Shown here: piece by piece, positions 6,492 through 54,068 of the stretch
How positions within the stretch are numbered: position 1 is the first letter of the stretch
Layout of the letters: each line of letters begins with the position of its first letter
Origin: Thermoplasmata archaeon
Lineage (GTDB): Archaea > Thermoplasmatota > Thermoplasmata > RBG-16-68-12 > JAFNFQ01
Reading direction: 5' to 3'
Assembly: GCA_041489255.1 (NCBI GenBank)
Contig: JBGPQV010000001.1
Coordinates: 10,596 to 74,595 of the forward strand
Length of the DNA: 64,000 nt
Notes under the pieces: generated by a model
Databases searched by the model: none
What the model saw: only the letters and a program-made list of their open reading frames with translations
What the model was told of the DNA's origin: nothing
Translations under genes and position numbers: made by a program

Positions 6492-6590
6492 GCCGCAGTA
6501 ACTCAGCTGGGAGAGTGCGAGACTGAAGTACGAGGGTCAGGCCCTCGCGCGGAAATCTCGAAGTCGCCGGTTCAAGTCCGGCCTGCGGCA
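6492..6590 (+). tRNA. tRNA-Phe(GAA) with canonical 26-nt intron (6529..6554)
   Basis: Manual cloverleaf: GCCGCAG/CTGCGGC acceptor, ACTC-AGCTGGGA-GAGT D arm, CGAGA..TCTCG anticodon stem, loop CTGAAG|intron|A, T arm GCCGG-TTCAAGT-CCGGC. No encoded CCA. Confidence 0.9.
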
Positions 6591-6593
6591 CGT

Positions 6594-6701
6594 CCCGCCT
6601 TAGCTCAGCCTGGTAGAGCGGGTGACTGTAGAAGGTTCCCGCCAGAATTGGCGGTGCCCGCTGGCATCATCAGGCCTCCGGTTCAAATCCGGAAGGCGGG
6701 A
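6594..6701 (+). tRNA. tRNA-Tyr(GUA) with canonical 34-nt intron (6632..6665)
   Basis: CCCGCCT/AGGCGGG acceptor (C1:G72, as in archaeal tRNA-Tyr), GCTC-AGCCTGGTA-GAGC D arm, loop CTGTAG|intron|A, T arm TCCGG-TTCAAAT-CCGGA. Lies 3 nt after tRNA-Phe. Confidence 0.9.
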
Positions 6702-14710: not shown

Positions 14711-14784
14711 GCAGGCGTAATCTAGTCTGGTTAGGATTTTGGCCTTCCAAGCCAACGACCCGGGTTCAAATCCCGGCGCCTGCA
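14711..14784 (+). tRNA. tRNA-Gly(UCC), no intron
   Basis: GCAGGCG/CGCCTGC acceptor, anticodon loop CTTCCAA, T arm CCGGG-TTCAAAT-CCCGG. Confidence 0.9.
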
Positions 14785-49068: not shown

Positions 49069-49108
49069 TGTCGGCGGGGGCGGGGTGCATTCTGCCTCGA
49101 CGCTGAAA

Positions 49109-49283
49109 CGGGCCCGCGGGGATTTTCGAAGCCCCACTTGTTTCTGGCAGGCAGGGCATTTTCGAACCCCGGACCACCCGGTTTCTTCACCAACGCAACC
49201 CTTTCGAGTTCCATCAGTTAAAAGCCGGATGCTCTATCTAGGGACGGTCTCTGAGACATCCAACCTAGCTGAGCTACGGGCCC
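49109..49283 (-). tRNA. tRNA-Lys(UUU) with three putative introns (about 49237..49263, 49183..49218, 49123..49160)
   Basis: Exons join to a canonical 74-nt cloverleaf: GGGCCCG-TA-GCTC-AGCTAGGTA-GAGC-A-TCCGG-CTTTTAA-CCGGG-TGGTC-CGGGG-TTCGAAT-CCCCG-CGGGCCC-G. 74 nt of exon plus 27+36+38 nt of intron equals the 175-nt span. Confidence 0.7.
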
Positions 49284-49490
49284 CCGGTATCAGCGCTGGA
49301 CACATGCGAACCCGTTCGAATCATTGACTCCTTAATAAGTTTTGCGGTTAGCCCCGTCCTGCAGGCCCTCATGGAGACGCACCAATTCTGGGCGCTTAGA
49401 CAATCCGCGCCTTCTCCGCGGCGATATCCGGGTCCCGCACCTCACGCAACGAAGGCAGACACAAGCGAACGAGGCTCGCGATTCCTTTCT

Positions 49491-49965: not shown

Positions 49966-50108
49966 ATGCTTCGGCTCCCGAGACTCGGAAAGGATTTCCG
50001 CATCTGATTCCCAGCATGACAGCGCTACAATGTGTATCTTGCTCCAAGATACGTCTTCTGAGAGGACGGAAATAGAGCCCACCCCCGTGATATGACGGGG
50101 ATGTGTTA

Positions 50109-53100
50109 ATGAAACTAGATCGGCATGGAAGAGCGTCGTTCGCCGTTTTGGCGCTCGCAATCCTGCTCCTTGCGAACCTGAGCGTCGTCTACATGCTCCA
50201 GGTGCAGCGGGAAGAAATGGACCTCGCGAATCAGGCGAATGAAGTGCGCATGATGAGAGAGTTCGGTGCATTGGTCCACAGAGAGGTGGAGGTCGCCGCC
50301 CACTACATCGCGATGGCCACGATAAGGAACGCCACGCAAGACCTCAACAACCAAAGCAGGATCAATGAGCTGTTCTCCGATTCATTCGCTAGCTTCGTCG
50401 AGGAATCGTTCCCGCGCGAGGCAAGGGGATTCACGGTCGCCGTAGACGACTACGGGATCATCGTCGTGACCGAGGCAAAGAGCGTGACGGACGTCGTGAG
50501 GACGGGGACTCTGGCAGAAAACAGCGAGGGGGAAGATTCTCCCGAAGCGATAGAGACGGGTGTGCCCGGCGGTCTGGAGGAAGCCCAGCGGATTTCCTAC
50601 TATCATCTGATTGGGCACCTGAACTACACAATCTCGGACGGCACAACGACTCTCCGCACGAGCGAGGATGTTGCCTCGGAGATCGACTCGCCTTTCCCAT
50701 TCGTCAACAGACAACTCCAGCGATTCTCCATTACATCGCAGGGCCCGATGTCGCACTCGGCGCAGGCACTCAGGTACATGCTCACGACCGTTGCGCAGCA
50801 GAGGGTCCTGCTCGGCTACGCTGGCGGCGACTACGGCAGCCCTGGTACCGGGATCACCAACATACTCACCCCGCAGGACGTCGAGATGGCGGTGAATCTC
50901 GTGCTTGTCTTGGAGCAGATCAGGCTCTTCAGATCGGTTGACAGGGATGCTGTCGACAAGTTTGACGAGGCCTACTTCATGGACTACGCTGGCGGCGTCT
51001 CATCTCCGACACTGACCCCGTCCGCAGACAACAGGACACTCCTGAGGCTTCTCGACACTTACTCGGGAAATGGGACGTTGGACCCGGCTGACCTATTTGC
51101 GCTGTTCACCGCGTTGGACCGGGAAGATATCCAGATGAACCGCGTACTCGCTCAAGCCCTCTATGCCATGATTGACCAGTTTTCCCTCAAGTACCTAGAC
51201 TACCTAGACTTCCTGCCTTTAGAGTTCATCGCCAACCTTGGCCTGAGCGTCCTCGAGCTCTTGACCGGTGCGCTCGACCAATTCATCGGCTGGCTGACGA
51301 ATCATCAAAAAGAGGCGGACATGGTCCGCGAGTTCGTGAGTAATCTGTTTGGCGACCTTGGCGTCTCGACGTCCATTCTGGGTCCCGCGAGTCTGTCGCT
51401 CCCCGCTCAGACTTTCACCGTGACTGACGAAGGCGGGCAAGAATACAACATCTCGCTGCCAGCCCAGCTCTACTCTGTCCCGTTCAAGACAAGATACCTT
51501 CTCGAAGGGAACAACGCCATTTGGAGCGAATACTTCAATGAGATCTACAAGGACGACCTCAAGGCAGTCCACGCCGGTGTCAGGGACCTCGCAAGGGACA
51601 TCGCCAACAGCCTCGCCAGCAAGCTCGACATGATCGGCCTGTTCAATCCAGTTCGGATCAACGGGGCCATTGATCCCCGAGATGATGTAGGGATGCTTGA
51701 GTACCTTTACGGCGCAATCAAGGCTTCCGTCTATGAGGCCATGGAGGGGCTCCGAGGGAATCCGAAGTTCTACCAAGGGCTTGTCGCGAACTTGTGGGGA
51801 CATGAGAAGGAGATGATTAGAGGACTCATGGACTATATTGAACTGGAATACGATGCTCTCGCGGACCAAGCATCGAACGTCGAATTCGCCCGCGGGTCGC
51901 TCGTCAACTCGATGATCGGCGTGGCTACATTCGACGGAGTCTATCGCCTCCTCGATGACACTGCGAGGGCACAGCTGGCACAGCACATTACCCAGGCTAT
52001 TGATGAGAACGGTTGGGCGCAGGCCGCATATGAGAAAGCGAAGAGCAATGATGTGCAGAGGTTCGAGTCGCTCTACGACAAGGCGATAAACCTCGACACG
52101 CCGCCGGCGAATGGCGGGTTGTACCAGCGGACGATGGAGATGATATCAGGTGCCACCGGCATCCTCACAGAGGCCGGCGATTTCGTGAATGTGTTCCTGG
52201 AGGGGTTGACGAGAAACGAACACATCTCGAACGATAAGATATTGATACCTGCGTACACGCAACCTTTCGAGTTCCGCAATCCGGGACTGTTCGCGAACCG
52301 CTCCCAAGCGGGTTTGAAGGAGGAAGCCCTCGTCGCCGACCAGAGCCCCGACCTGCTGCCCATAACACGACTCACGAGAGTTGGCGGTGAATTGCAGGGG
52401 GAACCGAATCAAGGCGAGCTTTGGGTGGACATAGTCGACCCCATGGATGTCCCGTTGTCAAAAGATTCGCCGAATGTGCATTACACCCAGGTCGACCGAA
52501 TCTCCGACCGACCGTTCCAGACCCAGTGGACGATCACGATCAAGGGGTCAGTCGGGATGACCGTATCGACCGAGCGCGCGGTCTATCTCGACCCCGAAGG
52601 CCTTGTCCCGGTCGTCGATCAGCTGGCAGTCCCTCTGAACCTGACATTGATTGTGACGACCTTCAGTGGCTGGCCTCTCGACGGCGTGGCCTATGCCAGT
52701 TCGAACACGCTCGGCAGTGACCTCTGGGCCAAGATTCAGAGCTTCTTTGAGGGGGTTTGGGACGCTGTCAGTTCCTCTGTTGGGTGGCTACTCGACGGCG
52801 CAAAATCCCTGCTGGATCAGCTTTCTTCGATAATCGACTACCTGCTCGCCCAAGCCTCGAAAGTCCTCAAAATGGTTTACGACGTCATCGACAAGGTTTT
52901 CGACTTACTACAGAAGGCGCTGCAAGGCGTCATTTCTCATCTTATGGAGGCGCTGGACTACGTCCTGAAATCGCTGCCCAGTTTCGAGTTCAAACTCTCT
53001 GGGTTCGGCCTCACTCTTCGCATCGCCGTTAACTGCGATGAAGCGAACAGGCTGCTGGTCGAAGCTACCCTCGGTTCGTTCAACATCACCGCAAGGTTCG

Positions 53101-54068
53101 TCAATCTCGAAAAAGCGGGGATAACCCCGCGCCAGAAGTGGGCATCGTGGGACATCCTCGCTGACGTCGAGGGTGCGGTAGGCCCGTTCACCCTGAAAGC
53201 CAGAATCGACCCGCTGATGATCGTCAGCGACCGCCTTGTGAGGGCGAGAGCCCGGTGGGGAGAGACATTCGAACTGGACCTCGTCATGCCGGAGGTGGAA
53301 ACCTATCACGCGTATGGCTTCAGTGTGGCGATACCGATCCCGGTGCCGCCGATCGGGGAAGTGGAAATCGAGCTGGGTTTCCGCGTCAGGGCATCTGAAC
53401 AATTCGAAGCGATTGACATCCCTGGCATTATGGCACACAGCATCCAAGAAGGGATAGAGCAGTGCGGTGGTATTCCGACATCCCTCGATCTGCTGGGGGA
53501 ATGCATCGAACAAGTCGTGAGGCATTTCGTGGATGACCTGTTGGCGGCTGTCGAAGATAGATTGACTAAGATAATCGATGTGACTCTCTATGTTCAGGGG
53601 GCCTTGATGTTTGAGGGAGTGGCGGGGGTGGGGGCTAGATTATCGCTCACCGTCGAGGGGGAAGGATTGTTGGAGCTTTTCGCGTTCATCGCGGACAACA
53701 TCAGAGGGCTCCTCGATTGCATCTTCGATGGTGTGTGCCTGATACACATGGAGAACGCCCCCAAGAAAATCGGGGAGCATATCTTCATCACCTTGGGGAT
53801 TTTCATGAATGTCCAGGCGCCGACATTCATCCCGCTTGCCTTACCCGTCGGCGGGAGCGCGGAAGTCGCTGTCACATTCGGCATAGGGGCCAACTTGGCT
53901 CTGCTAGGGAGAATAGTCGGACGCGACTTGGGCGCATGGGAGATTGATTTCGGCATGGTGATTGAGGATCTCCCTGCTTCAATGGCGCCCGAGCTCTTCG
54001 GGGCCGGCGTCGAACGGGGCGACCTGTGGATATTCAAGGGGACGGTGACGGCTCCGCGGCCCCCTTGA
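50109..54068 (+). CDS. Giant membrane-anchored hypothetical protein (about 1320 aa)
   Basis: N-terminal basic stretch plus hydrophobic segment (KLDRHGRASFAVLALAILLLANLSV). The rest is acidic and carries several N-x-S/T sequons. No recognisable catalytic motif. GTG 50103 is an alternative start. Confidence 0.8.
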   Translation: MKLDRHGRASFAVLALAILLLANLSVVYMLQVQREEMDLANQANEVRMMREFGALVHREVEVAAHYIAMATIRNATQDLNNQSRINELFSDSFASFVEESFPREARGFTVAVDDYGIIVVTEAKSVTDVVRTGTLAENSEGEDSPEAIETGVPGGLEEAQRISYYHLIGHLNYTISDGTTTLRTSEDVASEIDSPFPFVNRQLQRFSITSQGPMSHSAQALRYMLTTVAQQRVLLGYAGGDYGSPGTGITNILTPQDVEMAVNLVLVLEQIRLFRSVDRDAVDKFDEAYFMDYAGGVSSPTLTPSADNRTLLRLLDTYSGNGTLDPADLFALFTALDREDIQMNRVLAQALYAMIDQFSLKYLDYLDFLPLEFIANLGLSVLELLTGALDQFIGWLTNHQKEADMVREFVSNLFGDLGVSTSILGPASLSLPAQTFTVTDEGGQEYNISLPAQLYSVPFKTRYLLEGNNAIWSEYFNEIYKDDLKAVHAGVRDLARDIANSLASKLDMIGLFNPVRINGAIDPRDDVGMLEYLYGAIKASVYEAMEGLRGNPKFYQGLVANLWGHEKEMIRGLMDYIELEYDALADQASNVEFARGSLVNSMIGVATFDGVYRLLDDTARAQLAQHITQAIDENGWAQAAYEKAKSNDVQRFESLYDKAINLDTPPANGGLYQRTMEMISGATGILTEAGDFVNVFLEGLTRNEHISNDKILIPAYTQPFEFRNPGLFANRSQAGLKEEALVADQSPDLLPITRLTRVGGELQGEPNQGELWVDIVDPMDVPLSKDSPNVHYTQVDRISDRPFQTQWTITIKGSVGMTVSTERAVYLDPEGLVPVVDQLAVPLNLTLIVTTFSGWPLDGVAYASSNTLGSDLWAKIQSFFEGVWDAVSSSVGWLLDGAKSLLDQLSSIIDYLLAQASKVLKMVYDVIDKVFDLLQKALQGVISHLMEALDYVLKSLPSFEFKLSGFGLTLRIAVNCDEANRLLVEATLGSFNITARFVNLEKAGITPRQKWASWDILADVEGAVGPFTLKARIDPLMIVSDRLVRARARWGETFELDLVMPEVETYHAYGFSVAIPIPVPPIGEVEIELGFRVRASEQFEAIDIPGIMAHSIQEGIEQCGGIPTSLDLLGECIEQVVRHFVDDLLAAVEDRLTKIIDVTLYVQGALMFEGVAGVGARLSLTVEGEGLLELFAFIADNIRGLLDCIFDGVCLIHMENAPKKIGEHIFITLGIFMNVQAPTFIPLALPVGGSAEVAVTFGIGANLALLGRIVGRDLGAWEIDFGMVIEDLPASMAPELFGAGVERGDLWIFKGTVTAPRPP

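Follow-up and report, generated by a model that had tools for sequence, protein, structure and literature searches.

Archaeal tRNA genes with several introns, up to three in one gene, have been documented in Thermoproteales, other Crenarchaeota, Thaumarchaeota, Korarchaeum and Nanoarchaeum, and also in ARMAN, Methanopyrus kandleri, M. thermautotrophicus and Asgard archaea. [quoted passage not shown] Three-intron tRNA genes are reported for Thermoproteales (Pyrobaculum, Thermofilum, Caldivirga) by Sugahara et al. 2008, as cited in PMC4033280 and PMC8450103. A tRNAscan-SE 2.0 survey that covered 217 archaeal genomes found three-intron genes in Thermoproteales only, 16 in all; its 144 euryarchaeal genomes held no such gene and only seven with two introns. 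The three Methanomassiliicoccales genomes of that survey contained 13 canonical and six non-canonical introns and one two-intron gene. A preliminary description of the DNA studied here, made from the letters alone, had placed multi-intron tRNAs mostly in Thermoproteales and a few other lineages, which matches this literature. In the literature that we searched, we found no description of multi-intron tRNAs in Thermoplasmata or Methanomassiliicoccales.

We analysed a stretch of 64,000 nucleotides of archaeal DNA (the window). Within it, a locus of 175 nt is very probably a working tRNA-Lys(UUU) gene with three EndA-type introns, carried by an uncultured member of the Thermoplasmata related to Methanomassiliicoccales; its splicing and exact junctions are predicted. 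Like the genes of Thermoproteales, in which up to three BHB-type introns occur per gene, it combines canonical and non-canonical sites and is hidden from standard finders until the introns are removed. The host differs, being a member of the Thermoplasmata (Euryarchaeota in the older sense) rather than of the Crenarchaeota. Moreover, the three sites persist here in a single orthologous gene across deep divergence, whereas Thermoproteales are marked by rapid intron gain and transposition. Their EndA is of the (αβ)2 type with a Crenarchaea-specific loop, in contrast to the two-unit α'-type enzyme without insert found in related Thermoplasmata MAGs.

Three further systems resemble the locus in part. 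The pre-tRNA-Glu(UUC) of M. kandleri, also a euryarchaeon, has a D-loop intron at the same position (20b/21) and of the same relaxed HBh' form, together with a canonical one at 37/38, but it is a different tRNA with two introns, none of them in the T-loop, and its EndA is of the (αβ)2 type (PMC5829648). The pre-tRNA-Cys(GCA) of ARMAN-2 (Ca. Micrarchaeum) carries a T-loop intron exactly at 59/60 (PMC3488258, PMC5829648). However, that intron is a relaxed hBH form whose removal depends on the ε2 EndA and its specific loop. In the T-loop motif described here, by contrast, neither bulge is missing, the T stem serves as h, and an h' helix is present. Many non-canonical or multiple introns are also found in Atabeyarchaeia and Freyarchaeia, uncultured Asgard archaea of soil and wetland (PMC11291895), but 92–95% of their tRNA genes are affected, while the tRNA-Phe and tRNA-Tyr genes of the window have a canonical intron only. 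The kind of gene is known, then; what is new is the lineage, and the long-term keeping of three sites in one orthologous gene and a probable mismatch with the type of enzyme are also notable.

The gene lies on the minus strand (window positions 49283 to 49109), with G1 at 49283 and G73 at 49109. Written in pieces, with exons in capitals, it reads GGGCCCGTAGCTCAGCTAGGT / tggatgtctcagagaccgtccctagat / AGAGCATCCGGCTTTTA / actgatggaactcgaaagggttgcgttggtgaagaa / ACCGGGTGGTCCGGGGTTCGAA / aatgccctgcctgccagaaacaagtggggcttcgaaaa / TCCCCGCGGGCCCG. The gene, its introns and the elements around it are as follows.

49332..49343, minus strand: BRE/TATA-like promoter element AAAACTTATTAA, 49–60 nt upstream of G1, with a conserved consensus
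49284..49307, minus strand: predicted 5' leader of about 24 nt, from near a conserved GCATG; the start is placed by the TATA spacing
49263..49283, minus strand: exon 1, 21 nt; acceptor 5' strand G1–G7, U8 and A9, D stem 5' strand, D-loop to U20
49236..49262, minus strand: predicted intron 1, 27 nt, D-loop 20/21; relaxed HBh' form of the BHB, with H and h' pairing in relatives
49219..49235, minus strand: exon 2, 17 nt; A21, D stem 3' strand, A26, anticodon stem 5' strand, C32 U33 U34 U35 U36 A37
49183..49218, minus strand: predicted intron 2, 36 nt, canonical 37/38; h, H and a weak, irregular h'
49161..49182, minus strand: exon 3, 22 nt; A38, anticodon stem 3' strand, variable loop, T stem 5' strand, U54–A59
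49123..49160, minus strand: predicted intron 3, 38 nt, T-loop 59/60; near-canonical hBHBh'
49109..49122, minus strand: exon 4, 14 nt; U60, T stem 3' strand, acceptor 3' strand, discriminator G73
49069..49108, minus strand: 3' trailer and spacer to the rpoH ATG (49068–49066), with no TATA-like element

Removal of 27, 36 and 38 nt leaves a 74-nt product, GGGCCCGTAGCTCAGCTAGGTAGAGCATCCGGCTTTTAACCGGGTGGTCCGGGGTTCGAATCCCCGCGGGCCCG, which ARAGORN accepts as tRNA-Lys(ttt). This agrees with the earlier claim that the locus yields a canonical cloverleaf once three segments are taken out, and exon and intron lengths do sum to the span of 175 nt. In the ARAGORN fold the acceptor stem has 7 bp, all Watson-Crick, and a perfect D stem (GCUC/GAGC) closes a 9-nt D-loop (AGCUAGGUA). 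The anticodon loop is CUUUUAA on a stem with a single U27·G43 wobble, the variable loop is UGGUC, and the perfect T stem (CGGGG/CCCCG) carries the T-loop UUCGAAU. The Watson-Crick acceptor stem, the perfect T stem and the one T27-G43 wobble had been read in the same way before. The discriminator is G73, and CCA is not encoded in the gene. When left unspliced, this locus and its orthologues gave no match with ARAGORN (introns allowed) and none with Rfam at gathering or E-value thresholds.

The window contains three other tRNA genes.

6492–6590, plus strand: tRNA-Phe(GAA) with an intron at the canonical site; Rfam match, none with ARAGORN
6594–6701, plus strand: tRNA-Tyr(GUA) with an intron at the canonical site; Rfam match, none with ARAGORN
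14711–14784: tRNA-Gly(UCC), no intron

The count of three intron-containing genes among the four was correct as first given. The tRNA-Phe and tRNA-Tyr genes stand in tandem, 3 nt apart, and their introns measure about 26 or 34 nt; inspected by hand, helix H of the tRNA-Phe intron looks imperfect (A35·G).

We then looked at relatives. The RpoH encoded in the window has a 99% match in a MAG labelled Methanobacteriota archaeon bin_16 (JAFNFQ010000004.1) and is 67–71% identical in MAGs labelled Thermoplasmata archaeon and Methanomassiliicoccales archaeon; relatives at 63–75% bear the labels Thermoplasmata archaeon, Methanobacteriota archaeon and Euryarchaeota archaeon RBG_16_68_13. Judged by sequence, the host is a Thermoplasmata lineage related to Methanomassiliicoccales and not a crenarchaeon. 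Two other Thermoplasmata/Methanomassiliicoccales genomes, whose RpoH is 67–71% identical, have an orthologue of the tRNA gene just upstream of rpoH, with introns at the same three sites (35/45/34 and 35/38/33 nt) whose sequences differ from those of the window.

A metagenome scan for a D arm that is interrupted by 20–50 nt and followed by the anticodon arm returned at least 120 loci. Among the 102 that could be parsed, 72 have all three introns, 27 only those in the D- and T-loops and three only those in the D- and anticodon loops, proportions that cannot show how frequent intron-free versions are, because the pattern demanded a D-loop intron and exon sequences. Two unparsed loci (L008 and L107) have the D-loop intron only. 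The 81 distinct genes give 13 distinct mature sequences, all of 74 nt. Exon 1 is the same at every locus, in part a consequence of the search pattern, which demanded it. Overall the exons hardly vary, and where the acceptor, anticodon or T stem does change, a compensating change keeps the pairing (GGGCUCG/CGAGCCC is one example). The introns vary in sequence and in length (D-loop 25–47 nt, anticodon loop 20–57 nt, T-loop 27–164 nt). A single case among the at least 120 loci, L116, ends after the variable loop (GGTCC) and runs directly into the spacer before rpoH, without T arm and acceptor 3' strand; the cause is a genuine deletion or else a chimeric assembly.

For a covariation analysis, 40 distinct 'mini-precursors' were aligned without gaps and scored against a named cloverleaf-plus-BHB structure. 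In this set 92.9% of the cells were paired, versus 30–56% with slid partners. Double-sided changes were seen at 20 pairs, among them all 18 h' pairs of the three introns, six in each. The covariation score was 0.219, as compared to 0.116 in shuffles (0 of 500 reached the observed value) and 0.026–0.106 with slid partners; related sequences inflate the shuffle statistics, which makes the slid partners the fairer control, and there too the difference is clear. Without an imposed structure, RNAalifold recovered the acceptor, D, anticodon and T stems, H and h' of the D-loop intron and H of the T-loop intron. The layout is far beyond chance: one exon/intron plan recurs, with covarying helices, at over 100 independent loci.

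When the window's precursor is folded without constraints, the minimum-energy structure (−80.9 kcal/mol) already includes the acceptor stem, the helices of the D-loop intron, the anticodon stem and the T-loop BHB, and the full BHB-cloverleaf model costs 2.9 kcal/mol more. Folding each junction had been proposed as a check, and a BHB-type motif fits at all three. The 3-nt bulges and 4-bp H lie at the proposed sites, with two departures in the energy folds: a register slip within the U/A run of the anticodon motif, seen in the minimum-energy fold, and a fifth pair in the D-loop motif. The three sites first proposed hold to within 1–3 nt; the one in the D-loop is shifted by 1 nt under the BHB rule. 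For the anticodon and T-loop introns, whose boundaries are each ambiguous over three positions because of runs of A, the rule fixes 37/38 and 59/60.

The T-loop intron is near-canonical. The T stem acts as its h, UUCG pairs with CGAA to form H between the bulges AA|A and AA|U, and h' consists of A-U, a U·U mismatch and then GCCC:GGGC; the unconstrained fold reproduces this motif. In relatives h is paired in 100%, H in 99.4% and h' in 67–77% of cases. A near copy of the T arm had been noticed inside this intron, together with the suggestion that it could form the exon-intron helices. The copy is present in the sequence, although relatives do not keep it as such, and the suggestion was essentially right, since both the 3' strand of H and part of h' come from this copy. 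Its presence follows from the palindrome TTCGAA, since intronic CGAA pairs with exonic TTCG to give the 4-bp BHB helix. We rejected the idea that the intronic copy is the real T arm, which would give a T-loop of 9–10 nt and is not conserved in relatives. Four loci (L033, L054, L083 and L114) have T-loop introns of 109–164 nt with several hairpins (−38 to −60 kcal/mol). They form one deep-branching group with an RpoH that is 44–51% identical to that of the window, and their long introns showed no Rfam match and no obvious C/D boxes.

In the anticodon intron, h is the anticodon stem, H is CUUU:GAAG and the bulges are UA|A and AA|A. The h' of the window is weak and irregular, with three G·U pairs and a bulge. 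Among relatives h is paired in 100%, H in 95.6–97% and h' in 68–73%. The window and three loci (L043, L101, L114) have a C-box-like CUGAUG(G/A) at the 5' end of this intron and GUGA near its 3' end. In the window a k-turn and the BHB could not coexist, because the possible D-box GUGA overlaps helix H. As a general feature, a C/D-box guide RNA in the anticodon intron was rejected: a C-box-like UGAUG(A/G) occurs in only five of the 57 distinct introns, and Rfam returned nothing.

The D-loop intron has H = CUAG:CUAG, the bulges GU|U and AU|A, and h' = GGAUG:CGUCC. As it has no h helix, it represents the relaxed HBh' form; A14 and G15 lie opposite the 3' bulge, and together they make up a 2x3 internal loop that the D stem closes. 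H is paired in all sequences compared and h' in 92.9%. The boundary is ambiguous by 1 nt because a T is repeated; under the BHB rule it falls at U20|A21 instead of G19|U20, with the mature sequence of the window unchanged. In a subgroup of five loci (L052, L059, L090, L106 and L121) the 3' strand of H reads CUAC, not CUAG, which leaves a C·C mismatch beside the 3' bulge; the same five have a U27·U43 mismatch in the anticodon stem and a T-loop intron ending in CG|U instead of AA|U.

It is at this intron that the most durable alternative arises. In the same gene, the 5' cut could fall one nucleotide further 3', in a 5-bp register with C16–G19 paired, and the product would then be a 75-nt tRNA with a 10-nt D-loop (AGCUAGGUNA). 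Both ViennaRNA and RNAalifold indeed favour the five-pair helix with G19:C over pairing of intron nucleotide 2 with the same C, and intron nucleotide 1 is variable (A, U or C), as position 20a may be. However, the active sites of EndA are spaced for a 4-bp helix, and in four of four sequences with C changed to U, intron nucleotide 2 changes from G to A, where G19 could only wobble, though the four may be a single clade. We consider the shifted cut improbable and retain the 4-bp register with the cut at U20|A21.

Upstream of the gene, the consensus (C/G)AAAnTTTAWnTA is found 47–59 nt before G1 in nearly all of 86 distinct upstream regions. On the downstream side, rpoH begins 41 nt after the tRNA gene in the window and follows on the same strand in 96 of the 98 loci with enough sequence, at a distance of 24–277 nt. 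RpoH identity to the window ranges from 42 to 100% across these loci, and the three-intron form occurs throughout that range. In the groups to which the window belongs, the spacer measures 24–64 nt and holds no TATA-like element, so that a single transcript, made from the tRNA-Lys promoter, probably covers both the tRNA and the rpoH-rpoB operon. The group with D- and T-loop introns only has its own TTTTATAA before rpoH. On the other flank lie genes for an HVO_2753-like zinc-finger protein and EF-1beta; the identities of the neighbouring ORFs bear out the earlier placement of the gene between rpoH and the EF-1beta operon. Directly downstream of EF-1beta, a 1321-aa ORF (50103–54068, plus strand) carries a hydrophobic segment at its N terminus, and Pfam gave no match for it at E ≤ 0.001.

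The predicted leader is partly complementary to the 3' trailer, both in the window (49284–49307 with 49080–49108, minus strand) and at L002, L010, L014, L093 and other loci; examples are CGCAUGGACC:GGUCCAUGCG at L002 and GCAUGUC...AGCCG : CGGCU...GACAUGC at L010. The mean duplex energy is −22.7 kcal/mol, versus −11.7 kcal/mol for a downstream control, with z < −2 in 49% of 74 distinct loci (window: −25.7 kcal/mol, z = −2.3). Such pairing is absent from the D+T-only and AT-rich groups. Inspection of L010 and L002 by hand revealed only 1-nt bulges and internal loops in the duplex and no 3-4-3 motif of the BHB kind. The duplex could be a folding clamp for the three-intron precursor or a processing stem for the tRNA-rpoH transcript.

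Complementarity of leader and trailer in about half of the loci, together with the tight linkage to rpoH across a spacer without TATA element, would also suit a structured module in the leader of the rpoH transcript whose chief role is processing or regulation, with decoding secondary or absent. We regard this as very unlikely. All tRNA identity and tertiary-pair positions are kept (G18 G19, U54 U55 C56, U33, anticodon UUU, G73), which would be superfluous for a processing signal alone, and the D+T-only group retains the tRNA despite having its own TATA before rpoH. A decaying pseudogene or relic that is never spliced into a working tRNA, as might be imagined from the failure of standard finders and from the truncated L116, is hardly credible, since across loci whose RpoH is only 42–75% identical to that of the window the exons are almost invariant with compensated stem changes, the introns diverge freely yet retain their helices, the promoter is conserved, and the 0.92 Mb of fetched loci contain no intron-free D arm of tRNA-Lys(UUU).

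For the working tRNA gene, maturation would proceed along the following lines. Transcription would start from the BRE/TATA promoter about 50–60 nt upstream, probably together with the rpoH operon. Sequence, folding and covariation show that the 175-nt precursor takes up a cloverleaf in which each intron and its flanking exon form two 3-nt bulges around a 4-bp helix. By analogy with archaeal tRNA splicing in general, EndA would cut both bulges of each motif, with no fixed order of intron removal needed because the three motifs do not overlap. RtcB would then be expected to join the four exons via 2',3'-cyclic phosphate and 5'-OH ends, and RNase P and RNase Z would trim the ends before the CCA-adding enzyme completes the tRNA, as is established for these enzymes.

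With M. jannaschii and Thermoplasmata-type EndA queries, tblastn gave no match in the 64-kb window or in the 0.92 Mb of loci, and RtcB was not seen in the window or the fetched loci. Related Thermoplasmata/Methanomassiliicoccales MAGs, distinct from the genome of the window, encode a two-unit EndA of 351–361 aa. Two of these proteins, UCE74846.1 (labelled Methanomassiliicoccales archaeon, from the 3.2-Mb record CP070739.1) and UCF09096.1 (labelled Thermoplasmata archaeon), have 351 aa and two N-domain/catalytic-domain units each, that is, the α' architecture. The RpoH of the two complete EndA-bearing MAGs was absent among the 120 RpoH matches listed. The ARMAN-specific loop (ASL) confers broad specificity and has been grafted into the Archaeoglobus fulgidus EndA between E174 and G176. 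At this graft site, between (Y/F)G and LSL, the enzymes of the related MAGs have eight residues (FGKFIGEGLQLSL), the same length as in A. fulgidus (YGSEKGDLVTLSL) and Methanothrix (YGKPVGERLQLSL); they are therefore without a loop insert.

An α'2 EndA cuts the strict BHB well, and the A. fulgidus enzyme cut the D-loop HBh' (20b/21) of M. kandleri tRNA-Glu poorly in vitro (PMC5829648). If the organism of the window has an α' EndA, either the α'2 enzyme of this clade would have to be broader, or the tRNA core, stacked on the D stem, might replace h. Contacts of the core that could do so are U8-A14-A21 and G15-C48. We tentatively suggest, as a possibility that we hold to be less probable than not, that the clade breaks the link between EndA type and tRNA disruption: a loopless α'2 EndA would routinely remove three introns, including the relaxed HBh' one in the D-loop. 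All three may have been kept for long, perhaps since the tRNA promoter drives the essential rpoH operon, so that integration of a mobile element would be lethal.

Since standard finders miss the gene (here ARAGORN and Rfam), MAGs of the clade may seem to have no tRNA-Lys(UUU), which can distort inferences on MAG completeness and codon usage. Disruption of tRNA genes by several introns has been taken as a hallmark of lineages whose EndA has a specificity loop, namely Crenarchaeota, other TACK, Asgard and ARMAN. A three-intron tRNA maintained in over a hundred Thermoplasmata populations brings this trait to a group in which surveys found none, and relatives of that group have the narrow α'-type EndA. 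It would also provide a natural test set for the range of the α'2 EndA, with a strict-like T-loop motif, a canonical motif and a relaxed D-loop motif in a single RNA.
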